Part shown: piece by piece, positions 17,786-35,198 of the stretch
How positions within the stretch are numbered: the stretch's first letter is position 1
Layout: every line of letters begins with the position of its first letter
Assembly (NCBI GenBank): GCA_018663035.1
Contig: JABJEX010000013.1
Coordinates: 4,409 to 68,408 of the forward strand
Reading direction: 5' to 3'
Source of the DNA: Porticoccaceae bacterium
GTDB taxonomy: Bacteria > Pseudomonadota > Gammaproteobacteria > Pseudomonadales > Porticoccaceae
DNA length: 64,000 bases
Program-made: the position numbers and the translations under genes
The notes under the pieces: model-generated
What the model was told of the DNA's origin: nothing
What the model saw: only the letters and a program-made list of their open reading frames with translations
The model's database searches: none

Positions 17786-18319
17786 ATGGCGCAAGACAAG
17801 GCTCGAAAATCTGCTACTCGCTCTCCTCAGCGAGGCCCCGCAACTGAAAAGTCTACCGCGCCCGCTTTTTTGTCTGGCTTAGTACTAGGCGCCCTGCTCA
17901 GCTATTTTATACCCATGCTATTCGACAGCCCATTGCCTGATAGCCAGAGCACCGCAGACAGCGTAGACGAGGTTAAATCACCAAGCCTAACCTTTACCTT
18001 TCATGATATTTTAAAGACTTCGGAGATTGTTATCGCTGAGGAAGAGCAGGTCGAAGATAGCAAGGCGGTACAGGGTGAAGACTACAATTATCTACTGCAA
18101 GTAGGATCCTTTAAAAACAAAGCTGATGCCGAGCGACTGCGTGTTCAGCTCCTACTGCTTAACCTGACGGTGAGCACAGAAACCCTGGGCGCCGAAAAGG
18201 GCGATGTCTGGCACCGCGTATTGGTCGGGCCCTTCGCCAATACCTCTAAAATGGCGTCGGCGAGGGCCAAGCTTGCTCAAAATGAGATAGACACCCTTCT
18301 AGTTAAGCGCAAACTCTAG
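17786..18319 (+). CDS. SPOR-domain cell-division protein (FtsN-like)
   Basis: Basic N-terminus, one TM helix, FTFHDIL and a C-terminal SPOR domain (YLLQVGSFKNKADAE...WHRVLVGPF). Start at MAQDK. Confidence 0.85.
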   Translation: MAQDKARKSATRSPQRGPATEKSTAPAFLSGLVLGALLSYFIPMLFDSPLPDSQSTADSVDEVKSPSLTFTFHDILKTSEIVIAEEEQVEDSKAVQGEDYNYLLQVGSFKNKADAERLRVQLLLLNLTVSTETLGAEKGDVWHRVLVGPFANTSKMASARAKLAQNEIDTLLVKRKL

Positions 18320-19662
18320 AGATAGGCATCGTATTCCATCATTGTGACGGCAGAATCAAACTCCTGCTTCTCTTTGCGCTTGCACAGTGCATAGGTAGAC
18401 TGTAACTCAGCCCCTAAGTACTCCCTTATAAAATCTGACTTCTCAAACGCTTTAATAGCATCATTCCAAAAATGCGGCAGCGTGGCCTCAACATCGCCAG
18501 CGTCACCCTCGACTGCTTCAGGTGCTTTTAATTTGTTTTCAATGCCATACAGAGCTCCTGCCAACATTGCTGCGACCGTGAGATAAACATTGGCATCTGC
18601 GCCGGCTACACGATGTTCTATGCGCATAGCGCTGTTATCGCCACCGGGTATACGGATGGCTGTGGTGCGATTTTCATAGCCCCAATTGGGTGCCAGTGGC
18701 GCATAGCATCCGGGTACCATGCGGCGAAAGGAGTTGATATTAGGAGCGAATATAGCCATGCAGTCGGCCATAGTTTCTAGGCAACCAGCGACCGCATGGT
18801 TGAGCAGCTCCGAGCCCTGCTCTGTGCCATTATCAAACACATTATTACCCTGGTCGTCGAGTAGACTAAAGTGGATATGCATACCATTGCCAACCTGCTC
18901 TGCAAAAGGCTTAGCCATAAAGGAAGCTACTTTGCCATGGTTGTGGGATACATTGCGAATGGCGCGCTTCAGCATGCTGCCCTGGTCGCAGGCACGCAAT
19001 GCACAATCTTGATGGTAGAGATTAATCTCGAACTGTGAGGGGCCAAACTCTGTAATCAGGGTATCTACCGGTAGATTCTGGATTCTTGCCGCCTCGGAGA
19101 TGGCATCCATGAGTGGCGCCGTCCGGCGCATAGCCTCTAGACCGTATGTCTGGCCTCCCAGCGCCGGACTACCATCCAGCGCACTTTGGCTGTGCTGAGG
19201 CTTGCCAAATTGATCGCGATCTAATTCGAACAGATGAAACTCCATCTCACTAGCAACCACTGGTGTGAGACCGAGAGCCTTAAAGCGTGCCAATAGGTTT
19301 TCAAGAACAACGCGTGGGTCGCCACCGTAGTGACTTTCCCCATTAAAGCTACCCATAGAAACAATGAGTTGGCCTGTGGGTCGATCCGCCCAGGGGACCC
19401 GCGCCAGGGTTTCAGGGTGGGGCTTGCAGACGCCATCAGCGTCGCCACTGTCTGCCACTAGCTCCTCGAGATCGCGCCCCCAGATATCTAAAGAACAGGT
19501 GTTTTGGGGCATTTTATAGCCGCCCTCAAAAACCTTAGCGATCTGCTCGCGGGGTAACCATTTGCCGCGATGTACGGCGTTTAGGTCATGCAGAATCACC
19601 TCAAATATTTCTATATCCGGGTTATCTTGCAAAAATTGATCGAGTGGGGAGAGCATAGCCAT
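18316..19662 (-). CDS. Glutamine-synthetase-family gamma-glutamylpolyamine ligase (PuuA/PauA-like)
   Basis: EMEFHL, EFGPSQFEIN, GNGMHIHFSL, WGYENRTTAIRIP and RIEHRVAGADAN motifs. The N-terminus (DLNAVHRGKW) is PuuA-type, and a PuuD-like gene lies nearby. Confidence 0.85.
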   Translation of the reverse strand: MAMLSPLDQFLQDNPDIEIFEVILHDLNAVHRGKWLPREQIAKVFEGGYKMPQNTCSLDIWGRDLEELVADSGDADGVCKPHPETLARVPWADRPTGQLIVSMGSFNGESHYGGDPRVVLENLLARFKALGLTPVVASEMEFHLFELDRDQFGKPQHSQSALDGSPALGGQTYGLEAMRRTAPLMDAISEAARIQNLPVDTLITEFGPSQFEINLYHQDCALRACDQGSMLKRAIRNVSHNHGKVASFMAKPFAEQVGNGMHIHFSLLDDQGNNVFDNGTEQGSELLNHAVAGCLETMADCMAIFAPNINSFRRMVPGCYAPLAPNWGYENRTTAIRIPGGDNSAMRIEHRVAGADANVYLTVAAMLAGALYGIENKLKAPEAVEGDAGDVEATLPHFWNDAIKAFEKSDFIREYLGAELQSTYALCKRKEKQEFDSAVTMMEYDAYL

Positions 19663-19782
19663 AGTGTTTTCCAATTTGCTTATCGGCAACAGTAGCGCAT
19701 GTTGCAGCACAAATACATTGACCCCTGTGCTAACTACCCCTTGGTGGTATCTAAAATTAGCTCAGACAAAGCATTGGGGGAC

Positions 19783-21756
19783 TTATTCGGCAAGATCACC
19801 TAGGGCTGCTTTTAAAGGGCCCAAATGCGCTTCGAAATGCTTCCAGTAGGCAACTGCTGATTTGTAAATAGGCTGGCGCACCTGTTCAGAACTAGCGGTA
19901 TTTACTGCTCGCTCTGTCTCATGAAAACGCAGACAGGCTTGCTCTAGAGGCAGCCCACAGTAAGCCAATAACTTCTCCACATTCCCCTCAAGGTCATCGA
20001 CAACATTCTCATATTGCACTGAGTATACCTTGCCGGGGAAAACCTTTTGCCAGTGGGCCATAAGACGCTGGTAATCGCGGTAATAACGGCCCAGATCATT
20101 GAGGTCATAGCTGAAGTGTTGCCCCTCTGCCCAGAGTTGCTTGAAGCAGCCAAAACAATTGTCGATTGGGTGACGCATGGTGTTTACGATTTTGGCATTG
20201 GGCATGGCCAGCAGTATCAGCCCAATATAGATAAAGTTGTTCGGCAGCTTGTCGGTAAACAGCGGCGCATCAGTTTGCCGATGACGCTGGGCCTGAGCCA
20301 TAAACTGCTCTCCTAGGGAATACCAGTCCTGTGCGCCTAGCTCTGTTACCCCCAGAGGATAGGGTTGCGAAGCCATGGCATTGGGCTGCCGATGCAGCCG
20401 ATTTGCCAGCCAAGGGATATAGGGTAACTCGCGGGTGCCCTCCACCTGCGAATGAGACGCTAGTATTTGCTCCTGTAGCGTGGAACCTGATCTTGGCAGG
20501 CCGAGAATAAAAATCGGCGCGCCATCGTCTACACCTGCACCTGCAGACTGGGCAATAAACTCTGTCGAAAACGTCTCTATTGTTCTGTCAACCAGCTGAG
20601 AGAAATCATCGGCACTCCAACTCACCAATTGCTTCTGCACCTGGTTACCAGCTGCATAGTAAGCAAAGGCACTGTCCCAATCCTTGCGATGTTCATAGGC
20701 TTTGCCTAACGCATAATTAAAATGCACCTTGCTCTTGTCGGTAAGACTACCTTCGGCCAGAGCGGCCTGTATCTGACTCACCTCTGCATCACTAAATCTA
20801 TAGGTTTTGAGATTAGACAGAGACCAGGCGGCTTCGCCATAGTTGTTATCCAACTGCATGCAACGCCGATAGACTTCAACTGCCTGATCCTGTTCACCCA
20901 GAGTTTTTAATACTGTCGCTTTTTGGGAGAGTGCCACAACATTGTCTGGGGTTTTTTCAAGGACGAGATTGTACTGTTCGAGCGCAGCCTGAAAGCGGTT
21001 ATCCTTGGCAAAAATATCACCTAACAACATGCGCGCTTCGCTTCTGTCACTGTCAATATTTAGAACATGCTGAACAGCCTCTTCAGCCTCGATAATTTTG
21101 TCCTGCCGAGAGAGTGCCGCTGCTAGCCGCAACCACCATTTTAGACGTTCAGGCATTTTGCGAATAAGCTGCCGAGAAAGCTCCTCAGCCCAGCGTGCGC
21201 GACCAGAATCCAGTGCATGGTCGATCATTAACTCTTTGGCACCAACATTGTCGGGATCGACCGCCAAAACTTCCTGACAGAGCTTTTCGCTGCCAGCTCT
21301 ATCACCCGCCTTTAAGAGGCTAGAGGCTTCTATGACTTTATTTTTGAGTTCTTCCGACTGACGATTAAGCGCTGCTATCTGCGCTGATTGATCGGTTTTG
21401 CCCTGTGCCAATAAGACTTTTTCCAGCAATCTGCGCGGGGCCTTGAGCCTGTCATCAAGACTAAGAGCGCGCCTCAGGGATTGCTCAGCTGAATGGTATT
21501 GCTCTAGGGCAAGCTGGACCCTGCCAAGATCGGCGCAGGCATGGGCAAAATCTGGGGTGATGGCAAGAACCGCCTCAAACCCGCTTGCTGCTAGCTCTAG
21601 ATCTCCACGGCGCTCCCATACCTGAGCACGCAAACGCAAGCTGTTTACCTCGCGTGGGTTGAGCTTCAGCAGGGTTTCGCAAATCGCCTCGCAGCGCTGC
21701 AGATCGCCTTCGCGCAATGCTGAGAGTGCTTTAAAAAATTGCTGCTGAGGATCCAT
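19783..21756 (-). CDS. TPR-repeat sulfotransferase-family protein
   Basis: Many TPR-like helices, then the 5'-PSB loop PIFILGLPRSGSTL, FTDKLPNNF, RHPIDNCF and TASSEQVRQPIY. Confidence 0.92.
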   Translation of the reverse strand: MDPQQQFFKALSALREGDLQRCEAICETLLKLNPREVNSLRLRAQVWERRGDLELAASGFEAVLAITPDFAHACADLGRVQLALEQYHSAEQSLRRALSLDDRLKAPRRLLEKVLLAQGKTDQSAQIAALNRQSEELKNKVIEASSLLKAGDRAGSEKLCQEVLAVDPDNVGAKELMIDHALDSGRARWAEELSRQLIRKMPERLKWWLRLAAALSRQDKIIEAEEAVQHVLNIDSDRSEARMLLGDIFAKDNRFQAALEQYNLVLEKTPDNVVALSQKATVLKTLGEQDQAVEVYRRCMQLDNNYGEAAWSLSNLKTYRFSDAEVSQIQAALAEGSLTDKSKVHFNYALGKAYEHRKDWDSAFAYYAAGNQVQKQLVSWSADDFSQLVDRTIETFSTEFIAQSAGAGVDDGAPIFILGLPRSGSTLQEQILASHSQVEGTRELPYIPWLANRLHRQPNAMASQPYPLGVTELGAQDWYSLGEQFMAQAQRHRQTDAPLFTDKLPNNFIYIGLILLAMPNAKIVNTMRHPIDNCFGCFKQLWAEGQHFSYDLNDLGRYYRDYQRLMAHWQKVFPGKVYSVQYENVVDDLEGNVEKLLAYCGLPLEQACLRFHETERAVNTASSEQVRQPIYKSAVAYWKHFEAHLGPLKAALGDLAE

Positions 21757-21788
21757 AACTATCGCCGTTAGAATTTTGTTTAGTCTAC

Positions 21789-21818
21789 AAAAAAAGAGCC
21801 GACATTGTCGGCTCTTTT
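21789..21818 (-). terminator. Intrinsic terminator between the TonB-dependent receptor and the sulfotransferase
   Basis: AAAAAAAGAGCCGAC-ATT-GTCGGCTCTTTT, with a T-run on the minus strand. Confidence 0.85.
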
Positions 21819-21840
21819 ATTTGGTTGTTGGTCTGGTCTC

Positions 21841-24186
21841 TTAGAACTTCCAGCCAACATCTACGCCTATACGACGAGGCTCAGAGAAACCAAAGTAATG
21901 GGCACCAATATTAGAATCTGATGGTGCAGCTCCCTTGTAGTGGAACTCATCGGTAATATTATTAACCCACAGCGTTAGGTTCCAGTCCTCAGCACTGTCA
22001 AAGCCGACTCGCAGATTACTGGTAGTGAAACCGTCAGTAATAATTGGGTCGTTGCTAAATGAGCCAAAGCCAATACCCTCGTCCTGATGGAAAGTCTCCC
22101 AGGAAATAGCCAGATCGCCATTTTCCATAGGCACCGTATAGGTCGCTACAATGGCTCCACTGAACTCTATAGTTCCTGGAATCTGAGCACCCTTACAGTC
22201 AGCTGGATCACAGAAGCCCGGATCTGGGTTTGTCAGATCGGTATCTGCCCATGACAGTCCCATGTAAATATCTAGGTTGTCAGTCGGCAAGATGCGTATA
22301 TCCAACTCAACGCCGCTGCCCTCTGCATCACCTATATTAGCCACGCTGTAGCGCGAGCCAACATAGTAGCCTGACTGCATATCAGTAAACTCGTAGCTGT
22401 AGAGACTACCATTAACCTGCAACTGACCATCCCAGAACTGACCCTTGAGTCCCAATTCAATATTGGTCACTTCTTCCTTCCTAAAGCTCTCTGGAGTGGC
22501 ACCCAAATCTAGAGCGTCCGCACCTTCCATATCCTCGTCGGTAACCGAGTCAGGGAAAGACAGGAAGAAGGTATTAAAACCGCCGGCTTTGTAGCCAGTG
22601 CTGTAGTTAATATAGGTCGATACATCTTCTGACACCTGATAAGAAACTGCAGCTCGGACAGATGTATTAGTCCACTGGTCACTGCCACGGACATAGTCAG
22701 AGGAGAAGAATGGGAATGAATAGAAGAAATAATTGCGGTCAGCGCCACCAAATTTCTGGCCGAAGTCACGATTATCCTCTGTGTAACGAGCACCAACACT
22801 GACGTCGATCTTGTCAGAAACACGGATAGTAGCATCGCCGTAAACACCCCAGCCATCATACTCAGCATCAATATCTACCGAGTCATTGCGCGTGCCTATA
22901 CCTGGACCATAGCTGGTATATCCGTTGTACTCGTAATAAGAAGCACAGTCGGTAACCTCTGACTCAAAATACGCAGCATCAAAGTCCTCGCCATAGGCTG
23001 CCGCATAAGAAGCTGCATAGTAAGTACCATAGGTGACACACATAGTGTCTTCATCATAGGTTTGATTGAAGCGCGTCTGAATCTCTTCTTGATACCAAGA
23101 AGCTCCGACAAACCAGCTGACGTCTTCGCTATCGCCATCGAGTCGGAATTCTTGACTGAAGTACTCCTGCTCCTGAATCTGCTGGTAGTTGAAGATAAAG
23201 CGGTCTTCACCATCAAAATCTTCGTTGTAGTAATAGTTGTGTCCACGCAGACCAGTAATGGATGTCAGACTGAGATCGCCGCCAAGGTCAACCTCTACAT
23301 TTAAGCTGGCTCCCCAGACTTCGCCCTCATCAATAAGGAGGTCTGTGTCTACATCTGAACTAAACTGCTTTTTGCCCGCGTCAGAACTAAAGAACGAAAA
23401 GCCTGTGTTGTCCGCATCAAACACCTTGTAAATAGTAGGAGGACCCATACGGTCTTCGTACTCTAGTACTAGCGTGCTGCTTACAGCATCATTTTCAAAC
23501 GAGATGCTGTGTCTAATTGCCCTATTTTCAATAGCGCCAGCAGTTTTGCCGTCGTTGATGTTAGTCATCCAGCCATCTTGCTGCTGATGATAAATCGCCG
23601 TGCGACTGGTGAGGTTATCACTCAGGGACATATTAAAGGCACCAGATAGCATACCGTAACCGTCCTGACCCATTCCCACTGTCAATGAAGCATCCTGATC
23701 CTGACTTGGTTTCTTGGTGGTTACAGCAATAGCACCAGCTGATGCGTTGCGACCAAACAGGGTACCCTGTGGCCCCTTGACGATTTCTACTGCCTCTATA
23801 TCAAAGAAACTTGAGAGAGCGCCACCGGTTCGACCCAGATAGATACCATCCTGATAGACGCCGATGGAAGGCTCTGCACCTACACCAAAATCATTGGTGC
23901 TGATGCCGCGCACATTCATAGAGTCCAAGAACGAGTCGTCTGTATCGCCAGATACGCCAGGCGTGAGCAGAGCCAATTCTTTAGCATCATTTATCTGGGC
24001 CTTCTCAATAAAAGATCCAGTAAAGGCTGATACCGAAATAGGCACATCCTGTAGTGATTCTGCACGCTTCTGCGTGGTGACAATCACCTCTTCAATCTGA
24101 GCTGCAGTCACCTGCGCTGCATTTATTGTGGCTGCTGCCACAGCTGCCGAAAGCAGCGTTTTACGTAATACGGTATTAGATTTCAT
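21841..24186 (-). CDS. TonB-dependent outer-membrane receptor
   Basis: Signal peptide, TonB box IEEVIVTTQKRAESLQDVPISVSAF, plug motif VEIVKGPQGTLFGRNASAG, and a C-terminal beta strand ending in F (PRRIGVDVGWKF). Start at MKSNTV. Confidence 0.95.
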   Translation of the reverse strand: MKSNTVLRKTLLSAAVAAATINAAQVTAAQIEEVIVTTQKRAESLQDVPISVSAFTGSFIEKAQINDAKELALLTPGVSGDTDDSFLDSMNVRGISTNDFGVGAEPSIGVYQDGIYLGRTGGALSSFFDIEAVEIVKGPQGTLFGRNASAGAIAVTTKKPSQDQDASLTVGMGQDGYGMLSGAFNMSLSDNLTSRTAIYHQQQDGWMTNINDGKTAGAIENRAIRHSISFENDAVSSTLVLEYEDRMGPPTIYKVFDADNTGFSFFSSDAGKKQFSSDVDTDLLIDEGEVWGASLNVEVDLGGDLSLTSITGLRGHNYYYNEDFDGEDRFIFNYQQIQEQEYFSQEFRLDGDSEDVSWFVGASWYQEEIQTRFNQTYDEDTMCVTYGTYYAASYAAAYGEDFDAAYFESEVTDCASYYEYNGYTSYGPGIGTRNDSVDIDAEYDGWGVYGDATIRVSDKIDVSVGARYTEDNRDFGQKFGGADRNYFFYSFPFFSSDYVRGSDQWTNTSVRAAVSYQVSEDVSTYINYSTGYKAGGFNTFFLSFPDSVTDEDMEGADALDLGATPESFRKEEVTNIELGLKGQFWDGQLQVNGSLYSYEFTDMQSGYYVGSRYSVANIGDAEGSGVELDIRILPTDNLDIYMGLSWADTDLTNPDPGFCDPADCKGAQIPGTIEFSGAIVATYTVPMENGDLAISWETFHQDEGIGFGSFSNDPIITDGFTTSNLRVGFDSAEDWNLTLWVNNITDEFHYKGAAPSDSNIGAHYFGFSEPRRIGVDVGWKF

Positions 24187-24299
24187 AATTCTCCCCAATT
24201 AGTCTGAGTTGATTGGCGTCATTGCTAAGATCTTGACCACTAATACTTTTAGACTGCAGTTGCCAATATCAGAATTCTATCCCTAAACAAACAATTTAC

Positions 24300-25109
24300 C
24301 TATCCCTGGTCAAACAATTTCCCCTGCCCTTTTAAGGCTTTTTTTCGCATCTGCTGTCCGAACTCACTAAACAGCAGCTTGGAAATCTGGTTGTTTTCAT
24401 ATTGCCACTCTGGATGCCACTGCACCCCAACGGCCCAACAGCCACTTTCAGGCTTCAGCATAACCGCTTCAATCAAGCCATCCTCTGCATGGGCTAGGGC
24501 TTCTAAGCCATCAGCTAATCGATTTATGCCCTGACTATGCAGACTGTTAACCTGACAACTAGTGTCGCCACTGGCGCTGTGCAGCCAACCACCAGAAACA
24601 AAGTTTACTGAATGGGACGGGCCATACTGTCCATCGCGATCTTTGCTCTTGTCCTCTCGGTGGTCATGGTAAGGGCTCACCTCATGAACCTTGGCATGCA
24701 ATGAACCGCCTAGGGCCACATTGAGCTCCTGAAAGCCCCTACAGACTGCAAAAATAGGCACCCCATGATCGATACAGCAGCGGATCAACTGCAAACTCAA
24801 GCTATCGCGCTGAGGATCCTCTAAGGTACCATCTGCATGGGCGGGGCCAGCGTAATGTCGGGGCTGAATATTCGATGGGCTGCCCGGCAAGAATAGCCCA
24901 TCAATGCGACTGACAATATCCTCAACCTGATACAGAGCACCTAGGTCGTTGATATCTTTCCCGTCGCCAAAGGTAGGCAACAGCATCGGCAGCGCCTGAG
25001 CACCGTTAGCAGCTGCATTAATATATTTCTCACCGACCCCATGCACAGGATGCATCCCCGAGGTCATTACGTCACAGGCTATACCCACCACAGGCAGAGT
25101 TTTGCTCAT
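24300..25109 (-). CDS. Gamma-glutamyl-gamma-aminobutyrate hydrolase family (PuuD/SpuA, peptidase C26)
   Basis: GLFLPGSPSNI, AVCRGFQELNVALGG (nucleophile Cys), VNSLHSQG and VQWHPE. Start at MSKTLPVVGI. Confidence 0.9.
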   Translation of the reverse strand: MSKTLPVVGIACDVMTSGMHPVHGVGEKYINAAANGAQALPMLLPTFGDGKDINDLGALYQVEDIVSRIDGLFLPGSPSNIQPRHYAGPAHADGTLEDPQRDSLSLQLIRCCIDHGVPIFAVCRGFQELNVALGGSLHAKVHEVSPYHDHREDKSKDRDGQYGPSHSVNFVSGGWLHSASGDTSCQVNSLHSQGINRLADGLEALAHAEDGLIEAVMLKPESGCWAVGVQWHPEWQYENNQISKLLFSEFGQQMRKKALKGQGKLFDQG

Positions 25110-25291
25110 CGATAAATCCTTCACTTTTACTCGCCATTTATAGGTTGAAATTTGCCAACCCATTTGGGTACATGACGCCTGACCATTTGTATGTTGAGAT
25201 ATTCATTCAACCTAGCCGCTATAAAAATACCCTTTTGGGGTGGCTCATCATTGCAGCACTGGCGCTAGTCAGACGACTTCTTGAGATAATT

Positions 25292-26665
25292 ATGACCAAA
25301 ATGCGAACAACAGAACAGTGGCAACAGCTGGATACCCAGCGACATCTGCACCCCTTTACGGACTTTAATGACTATGCACGTAAACCTGGCAGAATCATCA
25401 ACCGCGCCGAGCATATTTATATCCATGATACCGACGGCAACGTTTTGCTCGACGCCATGTCAGGGCTTTGGTGTTGCAGTCTGGGCTATAGCCAGCCGAC
25501 TATTGCTGAAGCTGTAAGCCGTCAATTTTCTGAACTGCCCTACTACAATAATTTCTTCCAATGCAGTAACGCACCAGCCGTAGAACTGGCGAATCGCTTA
25601 GTAAACATTACGCCAGAGCAGTTTACCCATGTGTTTTTCACCAGCTCTGGTTCCGAAGCAAACGATACTAACATTCGTATCGTACGACGGTATTGGGATC
25701 TCAAAGAGCAGCCTAAAAAACGAATTATCCTATCGCGCACCAATGGTTATCACGGCAGTACTATTGCGTCCGCCAGTCTTGGCGGCTTTGAATTTGTTCA
25801 CAAGCAGTTCGAGACGCTACCCTATGTTGAGCATATTGCCGATCCCAACTGGTATTGCAACGGTGGCGAGCTAAGCCCCCATGAATTTGGTATTCAGGCA
25901 GCGCGCGAATTAGAGAAGCGCATCGACAAATTGGGCGCCGAAAATGTCGCTGCGTTTATAGCCGAACCTGTGCAGGGTGCAGGCGGTGTTATCGTGCCAC
26001 CAGACAGTTATTGGCCAGAAGTTAGCCGCATTCTTAAAGAGCGGGATATTCTGTTTATCAGCGACGAGGTTATCTGTGGCTTTGGTCGAACTGGAAACCT
26101 GTTTGGCTGCCAGACCTATGGCACTGAGCCGGATCTTATTACCTTTGCCAAGGCAGTAACTAATGGCTTTCAGCCTCTGGGTGGTGTAATGGTCAGCGAT
26201 AAAGTTGCGCAGGTAATCACCAGCAGCGGCGGCGAGTTTGGTCATGGCTTTACCTACTCGGGCCACCCTATCGCCTGTTCAGCCGCTCTGGCGACCCTCG
26301 ATATTATTGAAGATCAGAATATGGTGTCTCATGTTGCCGATAATGTCGGCCCTTACTTACAAAATAAGTGGGCAGCGCTAGCAGAGCACCCTATAGTCGG
26401 TCATGTGCGCGGCGTAGGCATGCTGGGCTCTATCGAGTTGGTGCGTAACAAAGAGACCCGTGAGCGACTGGAGCCAGAGCAAAAATCCGGCGGCATCTGT
26501 AGAGAATTTTGTATTGCTAATGGCCTAGTAATGCGTGCTGTGGGCGACTCAATGATTATTTCACCGCCCTTTGTTAGCAGCCATGAAGAAATTGATCTAT
26601 TAATCGAACGTGCCACTAAGGCGCTGGATGCCACTGCGCATCATTACCAAGTAAAAGGTTCTTAA
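25292..26665 (+). CDS. Class III aminotransferase (SpuC-like polyamine:pyruvate transaminase)
   Basis: [48 protein letters not shown] and FAKAVTNG motifs. Start at MTKMRTT. Confidence 0.9.
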
Positions 26666-26666
26666 T

Positions 26667-27848
26667 ATGGCGGGTGATTGGGGAAAGTTTAACTGGCAAG
26701 ACGCATTTAATCTCGATGATCAGCTGACTGATGAGGAGCGTATGGTGCGAGACACCGCCGCCATCTATGCTCAGGAAAAACTAGCACCCAGAGTACGTGA
26801 TGCTTTTCGTCAAGAACACACAGACCGAGAAATCTTTAACGAAATGGGTGAACTAGGGTTACTGGGTGCCACTATTGATGGCTATGGCTGCCCTGGTGTT
26901 AGCTATGTAAGCTACGGTCTAGTCGCCCGAGAAGTCGAACGCGTCGATTCTGGCTATCGCTCGATGATGAGTGTGCAATCTAGCCTAGTTATGTACCCCA
27001 TCTATACCTATGGCACTGAACAGCAAAAAGAAAAATACCTGCCCAAGTTGGCCACCGGTGAATGGGTGGGCTGCTTTGGTCTGACCGAACCAGACGCTGG
27101 TTCTGATCCGGGCGGGATGAAAACTCGAGCGAGAACTGTAGATGGCGGCTATCTGCTGTCAGGCAGCAAAATGTGGATCAGTAACTCACCGATTGCCGAT
27201 GTATTTGTGGTCTGGGCGAAAACTGATGACGGTATTATTCGAGGCTTTATTCTCGACAAAGGTATGAAAGGTCTTACCGCACCTAAAATAGAAGGCAAGC
27301 TAGCACTGCGCGCTTCGATTACCGGTGAGATTGTTATGGACGAGGTATTTGTTCCTGAAGAGCAACTGATGTCCAATGTACAGGGCTTAAAAGGGCCCTT
27401 TGGCTGCCTTAATTCTGCACGCTATGGCATAAGCTGGGGTGTTATGGGGGCCGCTGAAAACTGCTGGCATGCAGCGCGACAATACTGTCTGGACCGCACG
27501 CAGTTTAACCGACCTCTGGCGGCTACCCAGTTGATTCAAATGAAATTGGCTAATATGCAAACAGAGATCAGCCTGGGGCTACAGGGTTCGTTGCGTGCTG
27601 GACGGTTGAAAGATCAAGGCCAGCTAGCGCCTGAACTGATCTCTCTAATGAAGCGCAACAACTGTACTAAGGCTCTGGATATTGCTCGTATGGCAAGAGA
27701 CATGCATGGTGGCAACGGAATTTCTGATGAATACCCAATTATGCGCCATATGATGAACCTAGAGGTGGTTAACACCTACGAGGGTACAGCTGATGTTCAT
27801 GCCCTGATTCTAGGGCGTGCCCAAACAGGCATTCCGGCCTTCGGATAA
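26667..27848 (+). CDS. gcdH: Glutaryl-CoA dehydrogenase
   Basis: [40 protein letters not shown] and [20 protein letters not shown] are characteristic of GcdH. Confidence 0.93.
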
Positions 27849-27852
27849 TTCT

Positions 27853-29073
27853 ATGGCAGGACCTCTGGCTGGCTATAAAGTTTTGGATATGAGCCGCGTG
27901 CTCGCTGGCCCCTGGGCTGGGCAGATGCTCGCGGATCTCGGAGCTGAGGTAATCAAGATTGAACGGCCATCAGTGGGCGACGACACTCGCCACTGGGGAC
28001 CTCCCTACCTGCAAAACAGCGACGGCACCAGCACCCAAGACGCGGCTTATTTTTTTTGCACCAATCGCGGTAAAAAATCGGTCACTGTAGATATTACACA
28101 ACCAGAAGGCCAAGCAATTATCCGTCAGCTCGCCAGTCAGTCTGATGTGCTGATCGAAAACTATAAGGTGGGTGGCCTTGCAAAGTACGGTCTCGACTAC
28201 GACTCTCTGCAAGCCTTAAACCCACAGCTGATCTACTGCTCAATCACTGGCTTTGGCCAAACCGGCCCCTATGCTCAACGTCCGGGTTATGATTTTTTAA
28301 TTCAGGGCATGGGCGGCTTAATGAGCATCACCGGCGAGCCCGATGAGCAGCAAGGCGGCCCAGTAAAGGTCGGAGTAGCTGTCACAGATATTTTTACCGG
28401 TCTTTACGCCGCCAATGCAATTCAGGGCGCCCTGCTCGAACGGCACCAATCTGGACTGGGACAGCACATAGATCTGGCATTACTGGATGTGCAGGCTGCC
28501 GTATTAGCCAATCAGGCCAGCAACTACCTCATTGGTGGTCAGGTGCCAGAGCGTCTGGGTAATGCCCACCCAAACATTGTGCCCTATCAAGCATTCGCTA
28601 CTGCAGATGGCCATATTATTTTGGCGGTGGGTAATGACAGCCAGTTTGAGCGTCTCAGTCAGGTGCTACAGCAGCCACAGTGGGCTCTTGATCCAAGCTA
28701 TCAAACCAATGCCGCCAGAGTGAAAAACCGACAGCAACTATGCGCCAGTATCAGCCAGCAACTCAGTGCAGGAAACAGCAGTGATTGGCTCAGATTATTC
28801 ACCGAGCACCAGATTCCCTGCGGCCCGATTAATAGAATTGATGAAGTATTCGAAGACCCACAAATCTTAGCTCGTGACATGCTGGTCAAGGTGGCGGATA
28901 AACGCGCCGGTGAAATTAAACTGGTGGGCAATCCAATAAACTATAGTCGCTCACAAATAGACTATGCAGTGCCACCTCCGGAACTTGGAGATGACACTGC
29001 ATCAGTACTAGGGGAGACTCTTGAATTTTCGCAAGCGGAGCTAGACGCCCTGCGCAAAAAATCTATTATTTAG
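27853..29073 (+). CDS. CaiB/BaiF (family III) CoA-transferase, probably succinyl-CoA:glutarate CoA-transferase
   Basis: DMSRVLAGPW, GDDTRHWGPP, NRGKKS, PGYD and GVAVTDIFTG motifs; directly follows gcdH. Confidence 0.85.
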   Translation: MAGPLAGYKVLDMSRVLAGPWAGQMLADLGAEVIKIERPSVGDDTRHWGPPYLQNSDGTSTQDAAYFFCTNRGKKSVTVDITQPEGQAIIRQLASQSDVLIENYKVGGLAKYGLDYDSLQALNPQLIYCSITGFGQTGPYAQRPGYDFLIQGMGGLMSITGEPDEQQGGPVKVGVAVTDIFTGLYAANAIQGALLERHQSGLGQHIDLALLDVQAAVLANQASNYLIGGQVPERLGNAHPNIVPYQAFATADGHIILAVGNDSQFERLSQVLQQPQWALDPSYQTNAARVKNRQQLCASISQQLSAGNSSDWLRLFTEHQIPCGPINRIDEVFEDPQILARDMLVKVADKRAGEIKLVGNPINYSRSQIDYAVPPPELGDDTASVLGETLEFSQAELDALRKKSII

Positions 29074-29076
29074 TCG

Positions 29077-30891
29077 CTAGTTTTGTGACGCAATCCAACT
29101 GGCCACTGACTCTTCCAAAATGGCCAGTGGCATAGCGCCATTCATCAAAATCATTTCGTGAAACTCGCGGCTATCAAAGCGCTCACCCAGTGCTTTTTCA
29201 GCTTGGGTACGCAGCGCCAATATGGCTTGTTGACCGACTTTGTAGGAGGTCGCCTGACCGGGCCAAACCACATAGCGCTCAATTTCGCGAGTAACTTCTG
29301 CCTCAGTGAGACCAGTTTTCTCAAGCATGTAAGCGATCGCTTTCTCGCGACTCCAACGCTTGGCGTGGATGCCAGAATCTACGACTAAACGCACAGCCCG
29401 AAAAATCTCGTCCTGCAAGCGACCCAGATTCCCCAGAGGGTCATTGTCATAAACTCCCATGTCGGTAAAAGCGATGCGCTCTGCGTAAAGCGCCCAACCC
29501 TCGGTATAGGCATTGAAAGGGCTCATCATGCGAAGGAACGGCACATCCTCGATCATCTGCCCCGCAGAAATCTGGAAATGATGTCCTGGAGCACCCTCGT
29601 GATACATAAAGGTCCGCAGTTTCCAGCGGGGATTATCCCAGGTATCTTTTTGATTGATGTAGAAGCGCCCTGGGGTAGATCCATCTAGAGCTGGCGGCTG
29701 GTAGTACCCGCCTGGAGAGGAATCCTGCGCATAGACAGGCACCCTGACTATCTCCAGAGGCTGCGGCGGTATGGTTATAAAGTGCTGATCCGCCATAGCC
29801 ATCAACTGATCATTGACCTGGTTTAGGTAGGCTATCTGCTCAGCCCGACCTTCCTCTGTGTTGGCGAAGTTATGTTCAGGCATCACCATCAGCTGCTGAA
29901 CTCGAGACAGAATACTGCCTTCCGTCATCCCCAAGCTCATCAGAATATCGTTCATTTCCAACTGAATTCGTGCCACCTCGGCTAAACCTAGTTGATGAAC
30001 GTCATCTGCCGACATATTGGTGGTGGTATTTGATCTCAGAGCATTGTTGTAAATAGCTTCACCCTGAGGCAGACGCCATACACCAGCATCATGACTGCTG
30101 GTCAATAGCATCTCTTCAAATAGCGCGATCATGTTGTGGTACTGAGGAATAATCTGGGAGCTTACAGCCTCCTGCGCTTCCTTGGTGAGCGCCACCTTAG
30201 TAGCCTCAGCGATGTTGTCCAACGGATCCAACCTGCTGGCTAATGTAGCCACTAGAGGGTTTTCCTCTACTGGGCCATCAGAGAAAGCACGCATGCCAAC
30301 CAGTACTTTTTCAATAATAAAATCAGGGGGCACGGTCCCCTGATCACGATCATCCATTACCCGCACCCGCACCTCGGAAATGACCCGGGCGAACTCATTC
30401 AGGCGTGAAATGTAACGACGCAAACTTTTCTCGTCGACGATCCTATGTCTATCTGTGAGGAACTGAGGCAAATCCACCATCACGCCAGAGATTTGATTAA
30501 CTCGATATCCACCATGCTCAAACTCGGCGCTGCGAATTAAATCGTCAAAAAACCAGGCAGTAATCTTCCAACTGAGGAGCTCTTGACCCTCTAATCCCTC
30601 TGGGCCATAACTATCGAGACCGCGACGACCCTCAAGCAAAATAGTCAGTGACTTTTTATCGGCCTCCTCTGTATAGGACTCTAATTTGTCACTGTGGAAG
30701 TCTAGGGGCGTGTTATCAATAAGTCCGATAGAGCTGATCATTTCAGGAGACTGCATCACCAGCTGGAGGCTTATTTTGTTGATATAGTTATTGACGCCCA
30801 CAGGCATAGCCCAGAACCACAGATAGAGCGAAAACACTGCAATGACGACGACTGAGATCAGTAGCCCGAGAATTTTTTTAACAGCAGACAT
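29077..30891 (-). CDS. DUF885-family protein (putative metallopeptidase-like)
   Basis: N-terminal TM anchor, YHEGAPGHHFQ, EGWALYAE, RAVRLVVDSGIH and WPGQATSYKVG motifs. Confidence 0.88.
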   Translation of the reverse strand: MSAVKKILGLLISVVVIAVFSLYLWFWAMPVGVNNYINKISLQLVMQSPEMISSIGLIDNTPLDFHSDKLESYTEEADKKSLTILLEGRRGLDSYGPEGLEGQELLSWKITAWFFDDLIRSAEFEHGGYRVNQISGVMVDLPQFLTDRHRIVDEKSLRRYISRLNEFARVISEVRVRVMDDRDQGTVPPDFIIEKVLVGMRAFSDGPVEENPLVATLASRLDPLDNIAEATKVALTKEAQEAVSSQIIPQYHNMIALFEEMLLTSSHDAGVWRLPQGEAIYNNALRSNTTTNMSADDVHQLGLAEVARIQLEMNDILMSLGMTEGSILSRVQQLMVMPEHNFANTEEGRAEQIAYLNQVNDQLMAMADQHFITIPPQPLEIVRVPVYAQDSSPGGYYQPPALDGSTPGRFYINQKDTWDNPRWKLRTFMYHEGAPGHHFQISAGQMIEDVPFLRMMSPFNAYTEGWALYAERIAFTDMGVYDNDPLGNLGRLQDEIFRAVRLVVDSGIHAKRWSREKAIAYMLEKTGLTEAEVTREIERYVVWPGQATSYKVGQQAILALRTQAEKALGERFDSREFHEMILMNGAMPLAILEESVASWIASQN

Positions 30892-31007: not shown

Positions 31008-32183
31008 CTAGTCGATAAGCCGCATCACTGGCGGAGGAAAGCCATTGAAATCGCAGGCACAGGTGGTGCAATAGGCACCCAGATTGGGCATATAGATAAA
31101 ATCTTCCGCCTCGGTGTTAGCTGGGAGTTTATGTCGGCCCATTACGTCGATAGAGTCACAGGTTGGGCCAGCCATGGTCCACAGTCCCGGCTCCCCAGTG
31201 CGCTCGCTTATAAGAGTCACTGGAAAATCTTGGGTTAACTCCATCAATCCACCGTAAACACCAGTATCCAGATAGACCCAACGCACCTCATCGCGAGTCG
31301 CCACGCCTACTACCTGTGCAATGAGACAGCCTGCTGAACCAGCAAAGTATCTTCCCGGCTCTGCCATTATCTGAATATTTTCCGGAATCGATTCAAGCTC
31401 AGCATTGATCACGGCGCCAATCTCTTCAATAGCCGGCTCAGCTCCAGTAAATTGCAATGGATAACCACCACCCATATTGAGCAGTTCAGGCTCAAAGCCA
31501 TGGCTGGATAATTTAGTAAACAGTGCCTTGGCCGCTCGAATACCCTCAACCCAATTATTGGTGTTCACGCATTGCGAACCCACATGGAAGGTCACGCCAC
31601 AGATTCGCATACCGAGATTTTTTGCCGTTTCTATAACAGCATCAACGCCAGACGGACTAGCACCAAACTTACCTGCCAACGGCCAGCTGGAGCCTTCGTT
31701 GCTAACTTCGATACGAATATACAACTTGGCATCTGGCTTGATTGCAGATATTTTTGCCACCTCTTCTGGCGTGTCAACGCTGTACCAAAGGATGCCGTTC
31801 TTTGCAGCATGGGCAACGGCAGCGGGCGATTTAATCGGGTTGGAGTAAAATACTGTCTGCATATCGGCGCCCAGCTTCAGCATCGCATCTACCTCGGCGA
31901 TAGAGGCCACCTCAAAACAGGTACCCTCTTCTTTGAAGGTGCGCAGAATATCCATATCAGGGTTGGCCTTCACCGCATAATGAGGGCGTACTCTTGGCAT
32001 AGCCGCCATAAAACGACGCGCGTTTTCTCGCAGACGCTGCTTTGACACGACCAACACAGGCCGGCTGTAGTCTTTAGTGAAAGGCGCAGTAAAAGAAATT
32101 TGCTGACGACTGTCTTCTTCTACCATTAATCTACGCTGATTTTGGTTATTATTTTCCAGCTTAACTGCTGCAGCAACGCTCAT
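31008..32183 (-). CDS. Fold-type III PLP-dependent basic amino-acid decarboxylase (ornithine/lysine decarboxylase family)
   Basis: HYAVKAN (PLP Lys), KFG, TFHVGSQ, MGGGYP, AEPGRY and GPTCDSID motifs. Confidence 0.9.
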   Translation of the reverse strand: MSVAAAVKLENNNQNQRRLMVEEDSRQQISFTAPFTKDYSRPVLVVSKQRLRENARRFMAAMPRVRPHYAVKANPDMDILRTFKEEGTCFEVASIAEVDAMLKLGADMQTVFYSNPIKSPAAVAHAAKNGILWYSVDTPEEVAKISAIKPDAKLYIRIEVSNEGSSWPLAGKFGASPSGVDAVIETAKNLGMRICGVTFHVGSQCVNTNNWVEGIRAAKALFTKLSSHGFEPELLNMGGGYPLQFTGAEPAIEEIGAVINAELESIPENIQIMAEPGRYFAGSAGCLIAQVVGVATRDEVRWVYLDTGVYGGLMELTQDFPVTLISERTGEPGLWTMAGPTCDSIDVMGRHKLPANTEAEDFIYMPNLGAYCTTCACDFNGFPPPVMRLID

Positions 32184-32309: not shown

Positions 32310-32732
32310 ATGAAAAATGAAAGTCGCCTTCTCAAGCTTCTCCAAGAAAATAGCCGCAGAACCGTATCTGATCTCGCCAGCGAACTAGGGCTTAGCCGTG
32401 CCACAGTGCAGCAGACAATGGAGAGGTTGGAGCGCAAAGGCGTAATCCAGGGCTATACCATTAAGATTAACCCGCATTTTGAGCAGCAGCAGGTTAGCGC
32501 CTACATCATGATCTCAGTGATTCCTAAAAAGACTGCAGATATTGTTCGCCAGATTCACAGGGTGCCGCAACTGGATATGCTATGCACAATCAGTGGCCAG
32601 TACGACCTTATTGCCAAGGTAACTGAGGAAACCACAGAGGCGCTGGATAAAAGCATTGATCGAATCGCTACCCTTGATGGAGTAGAAAAAACACTGAGTC
32701 ATATTGTGTTGTCAAGAAAGGTAGATAGATAG
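32310..32732 (+). CDS. Lrp/AsnC-family transcriptional regulator
   Basis: N-terminal HTH (LQENSRRTVSDLASELGLSRATV...GVIQGYT) and a C-terminal RAM domain (ISGQYDLIAKV). Confidence 0.93.
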   Translation: MKNESRLLKLLQENSRRTVSDLASELGLSRATVQQTMERLERKGVIQGYTIKINPHFEQQQVSAYIMISVIPKKTADIVRQIHRVPQLDMLCTISGQYDLIAKVTEETTEALDKSIDRIATLDGVEKTLSHIVLSRKVDR

Positions 32733-32788
32733 TCGGTAGACTGGTAACTTAGCGACTCAAAAAAATAACGACAAAATCATCATTCCCT

Positions 32789-34252
32789 ATGAGCAAAATA
32801 ATCACTAAACCCAGCTTACTCGACGCCCTGATTCCTGTTATCGTTCTAATCAGCATGCTGGCAGGCACTGTCTATGTGTTTGGTCTAGACTCCTTTGGCC
32901 CCAATCAGGTTGCACTCATCATGGCAGCGGCAGTAGCTGCCATGATTGGGATTAAAAATGGCATCAGCTGGCATGAGATTGAGCAGGGCATGATTCACAC
33001 AATTAGCCTCTCACTACAATCAATTCTGATTCTATTAATGGTTGGCTCATTAATCGGCAGCTGGATTCTGTCTGGCACTGTACCCAGCATGATTTACTAT
33101 GGGGTGGAGTTGATGTCGCCGGACTACTTTTATCTCACCGCCTGCCTGGTTTGCGCCCTGCTAGGCTTTAGCATTGGTAGTTCTTGGACAGTGGCAGGAA
33201 CCCTAGGTATTGGCCTGATGGGCATCGCTGCGGCACTTAATCTTTCGCTGGCGATCAGTGCTGGCGCTATCATCTCCGGCGCCTACTTTGGCGACAAGCT
33301 GTCACCACTCTCAGAAACCACCAATCTGGCAGCGGCAGTAACCAGCAACAATCTGTTTGACCATATTCAGCACATGCTTTGGACTACTATCCCAGGCTTT
33401 TTGATTACCCTGGTTCTATTTTTTCTTTTGGGGGTAGGTAGCGGGTCCAACCTAGTAATTGATGATATTGAGATACTCCAAAATGCAATGCAGCAAACCT
33501 TCACCATTAATCCGCTGATGCTGCTGCCACTGATACTTTTACTGACCATGGCGGTCAAGAAGCTACCGGCCCTATCAACATTGATCTGCGGAACAGTCGC
33601 AGGCTGTGTGTTTGCGGCGGCGTTTCAAACCGATGTAGTTATTGCTCTGGCGGATGATAATAGCCTCAGCTCCACTGCAGCTATTTTTAAGGGCCTGTTT
33701 AGCTCGATGTTTTTGGGCTACAGCTCTGTGACCGGCAACGAAGCCCTTGATACCCTGCTGTCCAAAGGCGGCATGAGTAATATGCTGACTACCGTTGGTC
33801 TGGTCATAAATGCGATGGCCTTCGGTGGCGCGATGCGACGCACAGGTCTGCTGCAGCGGCTGGTAGAGGCTGCATTGAGCCGAGTTAGATCAGCAGGCGA
33901 TATGATTGTCGCCACTGTAGGGACCTGTATAGGCACGAATATTTTGGCTGCCGACCAATATCTCAGCCTGGTAATTCCTGGGCAGATGTTTGTAAAACCC
34001 TATGAAGAGCGCGGGCTCAGCACCATCAACCTATCGCGTACACTTGAGGACTCTGGCACCCTAACCTCGGCGCTAGTGCCCTGGAATACCTGTGGTGCCT
34101 ATATGTCAGCAACCCTAGGGGTCAGCACGTTTATCTATGCCCCCTATGCTTTCTTTAATATCCTCTGCCCAATCATTGCCATTATCTATGGTTATTCGCA
34201 AATTGGATTGACTACAATTGATAAAGAACCCTCAGGGCAGGCCCGGTCTTAG
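32789..34252 (+). CDS. NhaC-family antiporter (possible amino-acid/amine transporter)
   Basis: About 12 TM helices; GSSWTVAGTLG, GAYFGDKLSPLSETTNLA and SRTLEDSGT..LVPWNTCG motifs. Confidence 0.88.
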   Translation: MSKIITKPSLLDALIPVIVLISMLAGTVYVFGLDSFGPNQVALIMAAAVAAMIGIKNGISWHEIEQGMIHTISLSLQSILILLMVGSLIGSWILSGTVPSMIYYGVELMSPDYFYLTACLVCALLGFSIGSSWTVAGTLGIGLMGIAAALNLSLAISAGAIISGAYFGDKLSPLSETTNLAAAVTSNNLFDHIQHMLWTTIPGFLITLVLFFLLGVGSGSNLVIDDIEILQNAMQQTFTINPLMLLPLILLLTMAVKKLPALSTLICGTVAGCVFAAAFQTDVVIALADDNSLSSTAAIFKGLFSSMFLGYSSVTGNEALDTLLSKGGMSNMLTTVGLVINAMAFGGAMRRTGLLQRLVEAALSRVRSAGDMIVATVGTCIGTNILAADQYLSLVIPGQMFVKPYEERGLSTINLSRTLEDSGTLTSALVPWNTCGAYMSATLGVSTFIYAPYAFFNILCPIIAIIYGYSQIGLTTIDKEPSGQARS

Positions 34253-34298: not shown

Positions 34299-35198
34299 AT
34301 GACCATCAGCCAGTGCAGCATAATTTTTCTAGCGGCCTGTTTATCGGCTGGCTCGGCCTCATCTGGACCATTATTATTTGACGGTGAACTGGCAATACAA
34401 CATATAGCTAGGCAGATAGCATTCGGGCCCAGAGAGCCTCGCAATCAACTAGCAAAGAAAAATACCCTTAGCTATTTACAGCAAACTCTGGCCCCTCTGG
34501 CCGATGATATTAGCATCCAACATTTTCAAGCCTACCAACTAGAAGGTACTAATTTATGGGCCAGCTTCCAAGGCCCTACCCACGGCGATAAGCCCAGCGA
34601 ACGGATTATGCTCGCAGCCCACTGGGATACTCGCCCCTGGGCGGACCAAGACTCTGATCCAGCACTGCGACGCAGTGCGGTTATTGGCGCGAATGACGGC
34701 GGCTCTGGCGTCGCCCTGTTACTAGAGATGGCTCGTATTCTGGCATATAGACCAGCCCCAGTTACTGTTGATCTGGTATTTTTTGACCTTGAAGATATGG
34801 GAGGCATAGGTAATCGCCCTTTCTCGATTGGTGCACAACAATTTATTGCTGCCAATCCTAAGTATCGTCCCAGCGCAGGGGTTGTGGTTGATATGGTCTG
34901 CGATAAAAACCTCAGCATTCCCAGAGAGCAATATTCCGATACTAGAGCGGGCGCGCTGATGGATAAACTGTGGGCGATTGCTAAGACACAACAGGCTCGG
35001 GCCTTTAAAGACCGACGCGGTGGATTTATCAGCGACGACCACCTACCCTTTTTGGAGGCTGGAATTCCAGTCGTTGATTTGATTCACTATCCATTTCCTG
35101 ATTACTGGCACACTACAGAAGACACCCTAGACAAATGCAGTGCCCGTAGCTTGCAGCAGGTTGGCAATCTTCTGACTGACTTTATCTACACTTACTAG
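34299..35198 (+). CDS. M28-family metalloenzyme, glutaminyl-cyclase-like, secreted
   Basis: Signal peptide; AHWDTRP, GANDGGSG, FDLEDMG, DMV, SDDHLPF and YWHT motifs. Confidence 0.8.
   Translation: MTISQCSIIFLAACLSAGSASSGPLLFDGELAIQHIARQIAFGPREPRNQLAKKNTLSYLQQTLAPLADDISIQHFQAYQLEGTNLWASFQGPTHGDKPSERIMLAAHWDTRPWADQDSDPALRRSAVIGANDGGSGVALLLEMARILAYRPAPVTVDLVFFDLEDMGGIGNRPFSIGAQQFIAANPKYRPSAGVVVDMVCDKNLSIPREQYSDTRAGALMDKLWAIAKTQQARAFKDRRGGFISDDHLPFLEAGIPVVDLIHYPFPDYWHTTEDTLDKCSARSLQQVGNLLTDFIYTY

Follow-up and report, generated by a model that had tools for sequence, protein, structure and literature searches.

A TonB-dependent receptor and a TPR-sulfotransferase as a candidate uptake cassette in an amine catabolic locus of a Porticoccaceae bacterium

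In Caulobacter, the TonB-dependent transporter CciT works only together with CciO, a cytoplasmic Fe(II) dioxygenase encoded next to it, and the Fiu-YbiX pair of E. coli and the PiuA-PiuC pair of Pseudomonas belong to the same transporter-dioxygenase kind (PMC12004947). Here we analyze a 64,000-nucleotide stretch of DNA from a Porticoccaceae bacterium (assembly GCA_018663035.1, part of contig JABJEX010000013.1, positions 4,409 to 68,408; hereafter the window), in which genes for a TonB-dependent outer-membrane receptor (TBDR; 21841..24186, minus strand) and a cytoplasmic TPR-sulfotransferase (ST; 19783..21756, minus strand) lie side by side within a locus for amine catabolism. The dioxygenase-linked transporters appear to be the closest experimentally grounded parallel to this pair. 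As with CciT-CciO, a transporter gene is adjacent to, and co-conserved with, the gene of a leaderless cytoplasmic tailoring-type enzyme, here in 8/8 same-genus genomes with both and in about 20 further pairs. In contrast to CciT-CciO, the partner is a TPR-sulfotransferase rather than a 2-oxoglutarate/Fe dioxygenase, and the context is amine catabolism rather than Fur-regulated iron uptake. The best explanation we can offer, which we hold at about even chances, is an amine catabolic island to which part of the SAR92 strains have added a two-gene uptake cassette, with TBDR taking up a cationic nitrogen compound and ST acting as the partner of the receptor.

Two further groups of described systems bear on this locus. 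Aah-AIDA-I, TibC-TibA and HMW1C-HMW1 are cases in which the gene of an enzyme neighbors that of the outer-membrane protein it modifies, with the modification preceding export, and they differ from the present pair in being glycosyltransferases that act on autotransporters or adhesins. RaxST sulfates RaxX in the bacterial cytoplasm, and the product is exported later. One report describes RaxST as also sulfating the outer-membrane protein Omp1X (PMC4892823). On the metabolic side, the window resembles the Puu system of E. coli and the Pau/Spu systems of Pseudomonas in clustering a glutamine synthetase (GS)-like ligase, a C26 hydrolase and a SpuC-type transaminase, with downstream glutarate/glutaryl-CoA genes for the cadaverine branch. 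Unlike those systems, its GS-like and C26 proteins fall under the PuuA and PuuD cut-offs, the window lacks PuuB, PuuC, PuuR, PuuP and PotFGHI/SpuDEFGH, and a TBDR is present in place of a known uptake system. An earlier note, made from the DNA alone, had stated that neither PotABCD/SpuDEFGH nor PuuP is in the window. This is borne out, the only transport proteins found there being an NhaC-family protein, Nramp and SecDF, with no ABC polyamine transporter or APC/PuuP-type permease. The genome is also without PotA over the cut-off: a genome-wide search with TIGR01187 reached 157.6 bits at best against a cut-off of 355.6 and returned generic ABC ATPases only, PotD-like binding proteins not being searched for separately.

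The five genes of the earlier note were all found, in the order and orientation it gave, by open reading frame (ORF) calls, Pfam and NCBIfam. On the minus strand lie genes for a Peptidase_C26 protein, a PuuD-like candidate gamma-glutamyl amide hydrolase (24300..25109; ORF 24300-25163, likely start ATG at 25109; Pfam E 1.1e-63), for TBDR, for ST and for a GS-like candidate gamma-glutamyl-amine synthetase of PuuA/PauA-like type (18316..19662; ORF 18316-19710, likely start M17 at 19662, giving 448 aa, a length as in relatives; Gln-synt_C E 1e-97). Divergent from this run, on the plus strand, are genes for a SpuC-like diamine/polyamine:pyruvate aminotransferase (25292..26665; class-III ORF opening at 25145, likely start ATG at 25292), a glutaryl-CoA dehydrogenase (GcdH; 26667..27848) and a family-III CoA-transferase that is succinate-glutarate CoA-transferase-like (27817..29073; Pfam CoA_transf_3). 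After correction of the starts, 182 bp separate the C26 and aminotransferase genes. The genome measures 2.0 Mb (2.02 Mb) with a completeness estimate of 100%, and homologs of window proteins are labeled Porticoccaceae, SAR92 or HTCC2207.

The assignments differ in depth. The aminotransferase matches the SpuC, putrescine and polyamine:pyruvate transaminases 6hx9, 6gwi and 9j4z over its full length (E about 1e-164) and scores 686 bits against PRK07480, over the cut-off of 510, which places it in the SpuC type. The dehydrogenase matches 3gnc/3d6b at E 4e-192 and human GCDH at 1e-171, and the CoA-transferase scores 540 bits against NF052585, under the cut-off of 750. The GS-like protein belongs to the GS catalytic-domain superfamily and to no narrower group: GGputSyn (NF045547, the PuuA equivalog), the NCBIfam model that it fits best, gives 221.5 bits against a cut-off of 650, and its best PDB matches are GS-like proteins at E 1e-45. 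The C26 protein scores 215 bits with the Peptidase_C26 model, which it satisfies, and 180.6 bits with the PuuD model NF008471, for which the cut-off is 266. A fold-III PLP enzyme encoded further along (31008..32183, minus strand) is nearest to lysine/ornithine decarboxylases (PDB 2plj, E 5.8e-61). Read by homology, this set of decarboxylase, SpuC-like aminotransferase, GS-like ligase, C26 hydrolase, GcdH and CoA-transferase is a predicted lysine/cadaverine-putrescine catabolic island. Its genes would describe a route from lysine/ornithine through cadaverine/putrescine to glutarate and glutaryl-CoA, together with a gamma-glutamylation branch; genes for the aldehyde dehydrogenase and oxidase steps of the amine route were not found in the window. 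The C26 gene is present in only 5/16 SAR92-type loci, and the gamma-glutamyl branch is therefore variably complete among close relatives.

The association of the receptor with amine genes extends well beyond this genome. Taking one genome per species, the clade of TBDR yielded 80 loci. Those with flanks of 7 kb or more in either direction, 57 in all, were counted, and 52/57 have a GS-like or SpuC-like gene within about 10 kb of the receptor. These loci span six lineages with differing gene orders: SAR92 (16/16), the Pseudomaricurvus/Cellvibrionaceae type (7/7), the Pseudoteredinibacter type (3/4), the Microbulbifer type (15/16), Steroidobacteraceae and other metagenome-assembled genomes (10/12), and a group at 45-46% identity comprising Dasania and WSDTSA12 (1/2), in which the Dasania homolog, at 45% identity, has no GS-like or Aminotran_3 neighbors. 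Since the genome studied here carries 3 GS-like and 8 class-III aminotransferase homologs in 2.02 Mb, about 0.1 would be expected per 20 kb flank, and the arrangement is far from chance. Annotated contigs with TBDR homologs at 75, 66, 55, 52 and 37% identity all have a GS-like gene nearby, most also have Aminotran_3, and single contexts add arginase, DAO (PuuB-like), Aldedh, AA_permease or Amidohydro_3. DUF885 also flanks the receptor in Steroidobacteraceae-type loci, and NhaC directly follows the class-III aminotransferase in two HTCC2207-type loci (L046 and L047). The earlier note had tied the receptor to polyamine-type catabolic genes and had named the linkage of its orthologs among the points that could refute its proposal; on this point the proposal stands. 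Its further suggestion of energized outer-membrane scavenging gains from this linkage and from the failure to find a classical importer, whereas the substrates it named (long-chain diatom polyamines, sulfated or acylated amines) are pure speculation. What the neighboring genes most directly indicate is a chemistry of lysine/cadaverine and ornithine/putrescine.

Within the genus, the receptor and the sulfotransferase come and go together. Among 25 genomes (its own and 24 others), an ortholog of TBDR is present in 8 (its own and 7 more), and an ST ortholog, at 68-72% identity, in exactly the same 8, with neither gene in any of the remaining 17. The GS-like ortholog, at 72-83% identity, is more widespread, occurring in 15/25 genomes, namely these 8 and 7 more. 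Loci were fetched for 5 of the latter 7, and all 5 are otherwise syntenic, with decarboxylase, CoA-transferase, GcdH, aminotransferase, GS-like, SPOR and priA genes in place, while the slot of the cassette holds no gene, as in L182, where it measures about 490 bp, or an Amidohydro_3 gene alone. Among cultured SAR92 strains, HTCC2207, MOLA455 and H921 carry the cassette (loci L047, L046 and L048, respectively). Because the catabolic locus is syntenic in relatives without them, TBDR and ST form an accessory cassette of genes traveling together, and the word "inserted", which the earlier note had used of their place in the pathway, proves literally apt. In the genome of LSUCC0057 the cassette has been split: ST, GS-like, priA and pyrF genes are at the ancestral place (L161, G441:C1:456000-474000), and the receptor gene lies with those for C26, the class-III aminotransferase and GcdH about 90 kb from ST (L058).

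In several lineages, an Amidohydro_3 enzyme of 645-674 aa is encoded next to the GS-like and aminotransferase genes or in the space between them (L179:7643-9646, L181:11032-13056, L042:14428-16365 and L032:14974-16998). This hints at an amide-linked (acylated) amine as a substrate of the module.

Across a wider sample, it is the receptor that ST follows. The TPR-sulfotransferase family occurs in 67/400 sampled Gammaproteobacteria, often in multiple copies. In about 20 loci with the closest homologs of ST the neighbor is a TBDR, usually of another clade, and the remaining neighbors vary; more distant TPR-sulfotransferases are found in other contexts. The pairing is one-to-one with individual TBDR paralogs, with up to 10 pairs in one genome. 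A second pair in the genome studied here (contig C28:12094-16931) joins a receptor of 888 aa, which carries the Tyr-rich, Cys-containing stretch YTGYSNIGAYIPGYQCEYLTGSYY, to a TPR-sulfotransferase 34% identical to ST. Conversely, members of the receptor clade in Microbulbifer, Pseudoteredinibacter and Steroidobacteraceae keep their GS-like/transaminase neighbors without an adjacent ST. As these ST-less sister clades retain the catabolic genes, ST goes with the receptor and not with the pathway, whose chemistry does not need it. Judged by its neighborhoods, ST is thus a putative dedicated partner of the receptor rather than a catabolic step. The view of the earlier note that ST acts on or senses the imported compound finds no support as stated, given the sister clades that have the same receptor without ST, the ST homologs that sit beside receptors of other clades, and the TPR build of the protein.

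The flanks of other ST-TBDR pairs share a loose nitrogen-compound theme, with genes for amine oxidase and GS-like proteins, a BCCT carrier, arginase, a choline-dehydrogenase-like GMC oxidoreductase, homocysteine S-methyltransferase and an Asp/Arg beta-hydroxylase. Between or after some of these pairs there are extra tailoring-type genes (L116:5311-5937, L119:6248-6895 and L120:8637-9257), of the Asp/Arg beta-hydroxylase family or encoding a small Sulfotransfer_2 protein. Another TBDR-ST pair of LSUCC0057 (L162, G441:C1:335000-352000) is directly followed by a BCCT (betaine/carnitine/choline) transporter gene, a further link between an ST-receptor pair and organic cations.

The ST protein is a cytoplasmic enzyme, probably dependent on 3'-phosphoadenosine 5'-phosphosulfate (PAPS). 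It comprises 657 aa, shows no signal peptide, and is modeled by AlphaFold2 (AF2; confidence score, pLDDT, 90) as some 400 residues of TPR helices followed by a C-terminal Sulfotransfer_3 domain (E 1.3e-49; 169.9 bits). The features that define PAPS-dependent members of this family, a 5'-phosphosulfate-binding loop, a 3'-phosphate-binding motif and a catalytic base, are all present. The loop, GLPRSGST (20479..20502, minus strand), is invariant in 17 homologs, down to 40% identity, and so are E443, R528-x-P-x-D532 and SSEQVRxP. An APS kinase is encoded in the genome (231.6 bits), so a supply of PAPS is plausible. A fold search with the whole protein returned OGT/SPINDLY first, by way of the TPR region and without placing the catalytic domain, which likens the overall design to these TPR-plus-catalytic enzymes. 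When the catalytic domain was excised, the only PDB matches were tyrosylprotein sulfotransferases (TPSTs) and the CurM/OLS polyketide sulfotransferases, all weak (E 9e-5 and up). The TPSTs gave the best full-domain matches, also weak (E 9e-5 to 0.03), and are the only protein-acting PDB relatives that were found. With human TPST1/2, tick TPST and RaxST, ST shares the Sulfotransfer_3 domain, the PRSGS/TTL loop, the RxxxD 3'-phosphate motif and a C-terminal S-S/T-x-Q-V-x-x-P; unlike TPST and RaxST, it bears a 400-aa TPR arm. The combination of about 400 aa of TPR with a TPST/CurM-like domain suggests a macromolecular acceptor.

A candidate acceptor is found in the receptor itself. TBDR has 781 aa (ORF 21841-24198, true start ATG at 24186) with Plug (58.6 bits) and barrel (110.8 bits) domains, a signal peptide, the TonB box IEEVIVTT downstream of it (24073..24096, minus strand), of which residues I-E-E...T are invariant across the receptor alignment, and a terminal Phe, features that together identify it as a TonB-dependent receptor. 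Its AF2 model (pLDDT 75) shows a barrel that matches the fold of TonB-dependent transporters at E 1e-46, generically and at 13-17% identity to solved transporters. On this model the long extracellular loops are strongly acidic. A Cys-clamped loop between barrel strands 9 and 10, as counted on the model (ORF residues 387-432; 22903..23040, minus strand), has 11 Tyr and 7 Asp/Glu among its residues and is free of Lys and Arg; it is placed outside the cell because all long loops lie on the same side of the barrel. In every ST-linked member of the clade this loop has 6-18 Tyr, zero Lys/Arg and a conserved C-[AS]-[ST]-Y-Y-x-Y motif, whereas ST-less members have 1-3 Tyr and 8-15 Asp/Glu. The enrichment is restricted to the strand 9-10 loop, with 9.3 versus 1.6 Tyr and 9.3 versus 14.0 Asp/Glu in ST-linked and ST-less receptors, respectively. 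LSUCC0057, an apparent exception with a Tyr-rich loop and no adjacent ST, carries the ST ortholog elsewhere in its genome. In the sampled Pseudoteredinibacter genome, where the loop is Tyr-poor, no TPR-sulfotransferase was found, and the six of the Microbulbifer genome all scored as distant paralogs, none of them adjoining the clade receptor. Such a pattern would be expected if sulfotyrosines supplied in one subclade the negative charge that carboxylates give elsewhere.

We also considered a rule by which all ST-linked TBDRs have Tyr-rich loops, and did not uphold it, as a second ST-linked clade has its Tyr-rich stretch in another loop and one linked receptor (L128) is a counter-example. The maximum number of Tyr per 50 aa does split linked from unlinked receptors (Mann-Whitney p 1e-11), in sets dominated by two related clades, for which reason the p value is not counted. 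Almost no ST-less members of the second clade were found, with two candidates scored per genome.

It is plausible that these elements work together in the following way. TBDR would be the energized outer-membrane entry for a scarce cationic nitrogen compound, either a di-/polyamine or a basic peptide or amide from which one is released. This compound would be captured where the receptor exposes its acidic face to the outside, and would then cross the outer membrane in a TonB-dependent manner. Trimming in the envelope might follow, by an M28 lipoprotein and an M20 peptidase with a signal peptide (together 34299..36591, plus strand; Pfam and N-termini) and by a membrane-anchored DUF885 protein, a candidate envelope hydrolase with an N-terminal anchor and an HEGAPGHH motif (29077..30891, minus strand; Pfam). 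The lipobox of the M28 protein is LAAC, and the M28/M20 genes are syntenic in SAR92 relatives. Passage of the inner membrane could be through the NhaC-family carrier, whose gene lies with that of an AsnC/Lrp regulator (32310..34252, plus strand; Pfam), after which transamination or gamma-glutamylation would lead to glutaryl-CoA. In this model, ST would serve the receptor by O-sulfating tyrosines of the Cys-clamped loop before Sec export, placing fixed negative charge at the cation site. The Tyr-rich, Lys/Arg-free loop would in this way be made a polyanionic trap for polycationic amines, where ST-less relatives would use extra Asp/Glu. The substrate class, the direction of transport, the acceptor of ST and the capture, trimming and inner-membrane steps are what we infer. 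Cytoplasmic sulfation of receptor-loop tyrosines by a TPR-guided, TPST-like ST is the most likely single role for this enzyme among those we weighed, a tentative proposal that holds less than the majority of the probability.

Several observations weigh against this model. The ST-linked receptors form one subclade on the tree, with an ST-less sister and ST-less outgroups; with a single evolutionary gain, the covariation of Tyr-rich loop and ST is confounded by ancestry, and receptor sulfation is offered as a hypothesis only. The second clade, all of whose receptors are ST-linked, has its Tyr-rich stretch in a loop that is not homologous, L128 has no such loop at all, few of the tyrosines in the loop are directly preceded (position -1) by an acidic residue, and AF2 models the loop as packed helices (pLDDT about 75). 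The similarity of ST to TPSTs is weak (E 9e-5), Gly440 stands where TPSTs have their catalytic Glu99, and the counterpart of the invariant E443 is a Glu of CurM-ST. To our knowledge, there is no precedent for Sec export of a sulfated precursor. After the split in LSUCC0057, ST stayed beside the GS-like gene and not beside TBDR, and in the window a terminator-like hairpin lies between the two genes. Small polyamines normally cross the outer membrane through porins, and, with M28, M20 and DUF885 encoded in the locus as envelope peptidases, the imported molecule could be a peptide or amide instead of a free polyamine.

The hairpin (21792..21818; terminator scan), which follows the stop codon of TBDR and precedes the start of ST, is a perfect 12-bp palindrome, AAAAGAGCCGACATTGTCGGCTCTTTT, bordered by an A-run and a T-run. 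It resembles a terminator or attenuator of bidirectional type, and the level of ST could be held by it far below that of the receptor.

The place of ST in the locus can also be read differently, with a small molecule as the substrate of the enzyme, be it the amine that is imported, an intermediate of the pathway or a product destined for export. N- or O-sulfation would then serve detoxification, trapping or signaling. ST does sit within the catabolic locus, it still adjoins the GS-like gene in LSUCC0057 with the receptor 90 kb away, CurM-ST, one of its two nearest solved relatives, sulfates a non-tyrosine hydroxyl, and genes for nitrogen compounds are often found in the flanks of other ST-TBDR pairs (amine oxidase, BCCT, arginase, GMC oxidoreductase, S-methyltransferase, a second small sulfotransferase). 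We nevertheless consider a small-molecule substrate unlikely, as sister clades run the TBDR/GS-like/aminotransferase module without an adjacent ST, 7 same-genus genomes keep the catabolic locus without one, TBDR is the only constant neighbor of the close ST homologs, and TPR arms of 400 aa are uncommon among small-molecule enzymes; we also know of no sulfation step in amine catabolism. Less probable still is that ST is no working sulfotransferase on receptor or substrate and serves instead as a PAPS or PAP (3'-phosphoadenosine 5'-phosphate) sensor, as a scaffold, or as the modifier of a different protein of the envelope, for example one belonging to the TonB complex or to the export machinery. 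TPR arms are indeed scaffolds, the hairpin after TBDR could uncouple expression, and some ST-linked receptors lack Tyr-rich loops; yet strict conservation of the PAPS-binding and catalytic motifs to 40% identity favors catalysis, Pfam finds no DNA-binding or signaling domain in ST, and one-to-one pairing with TBDR paralogs, up to 10 pairs per genome, argues against a shared target.

Other questions concern what the receptor carries. Basic peptides or N-acyl/amide conjugates (Lys/Orn-rich peptides, acylated amines) might be imported and cut by the envelope hydrolases, freeing lysine, ornithine or amine for uptake by NhaC, decarboxylation and degradation. The presence of the M28 lipoprotein, secreted M20 and anchored DUF885 in synteny with the cassette in SAR92 would fit this, as would DUF885 beside the receptor in Steroidobacteraceae-type loci, the recurrence of Amidohydro_3 in the module, and the adjacency of the Lys/Orn decarboxylase with the AsnC regulator and NhaC carrier; TBDR substrates are, moreover, usually bigger than amines that permeate porins. 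Set against these points, the peptidases are unlinked to TBDR outside SAR92, and the genes common to all lineages, GS-like and transaminase, act on free primary amines, such that we regard import of peptides or conjugates, too, as unlikely, on a par with a small-molecule role for ST. Finally, TBDR could be a receptor for an iron chelate or an unrelated nutrient that came to lie in an amine locus by a historical accident of a mobile TBDR+ST cassette. Homologs carry the JGI label "iron complex outermembrane receptor protein", siderophore receptors are the closest among solved folds, TIGR01783, a model of the siderophore-receptor subfamily, is the top NCBIfam match, and the cassette is gained and lost as a unit. 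That match, however, reaches only 122.1 bits against a cut-off of 223.5, and TBDR is under the cut-off of every NCBIfam siderophore, iron, heme or B12 receptor model. No Fur box was found near TBDR (best match 10-11/19), nor were genes for siderophore synthesis or utilization among the Pfam-annotated neighbors of the locus, and we therefore rejected a siderophore receptor as our main reading. Linkage to GS-like and aminotransferase genes recurs in six lineages, with differing orders and with ST-less loci included, and one insertion accident cannot account for it; an iron or unrelated receptor is accordingly the least probable of the alternatives, and very improbable.

Elsewhere in the window, a 691-aa protein (44023-46098) combines three PEGA domains and CarboxypepD_reg-like domains with a C-terminal FGE-sulfatase (formylglycine-generating-enzyme-like) domain.

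Literature searches returned no report of the modification of a TonB-dependent receptor, by sulfate or otherwise, and nothing relevant on TBDR with TPR-sulfotransferase, on TBDRs for polyamines or on polyamine uptake in SAR92. For the TBDR-ST pair, the present locus contributes the metabolic context, the cassette behavior and the loop comparison, and the substrate class would probably be new for TonB-dependent transport.

Together with related amines, polyamines form a rapidly cycling fraction of the dissolved organic nitrogen of the sea, and their uptake is usually credited to ABC systems of the PotD/PotF type. SAR92-type bacteria are abundant in phytoplankton blooms and rely heavily on TonB-dependent transport. 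If our proposal is true, a clade of receptors for cationic amines would widen the range of substrate classes served by TonB-dependent transport, and amine use would be read differently from metagenomes, where such TBDR genes are now labeled "iron complex receptor". Receptor sulfation, if it occurs, would establish tyrosine sulfation as a programmed modification of TonB-dependent receptors, through which ligand capture could be tuned in a new manner. Sister receptors with and without ST differ in one extracellular loop, and so offer an unusually clean comparative handle on a widespread TBDR/TPR-sulfotransferase pair. In this way the locus bears on the question posed by CciT-CciO, namely what certain transporters of the outer membrane require an enzyme in the cytoplasm for.

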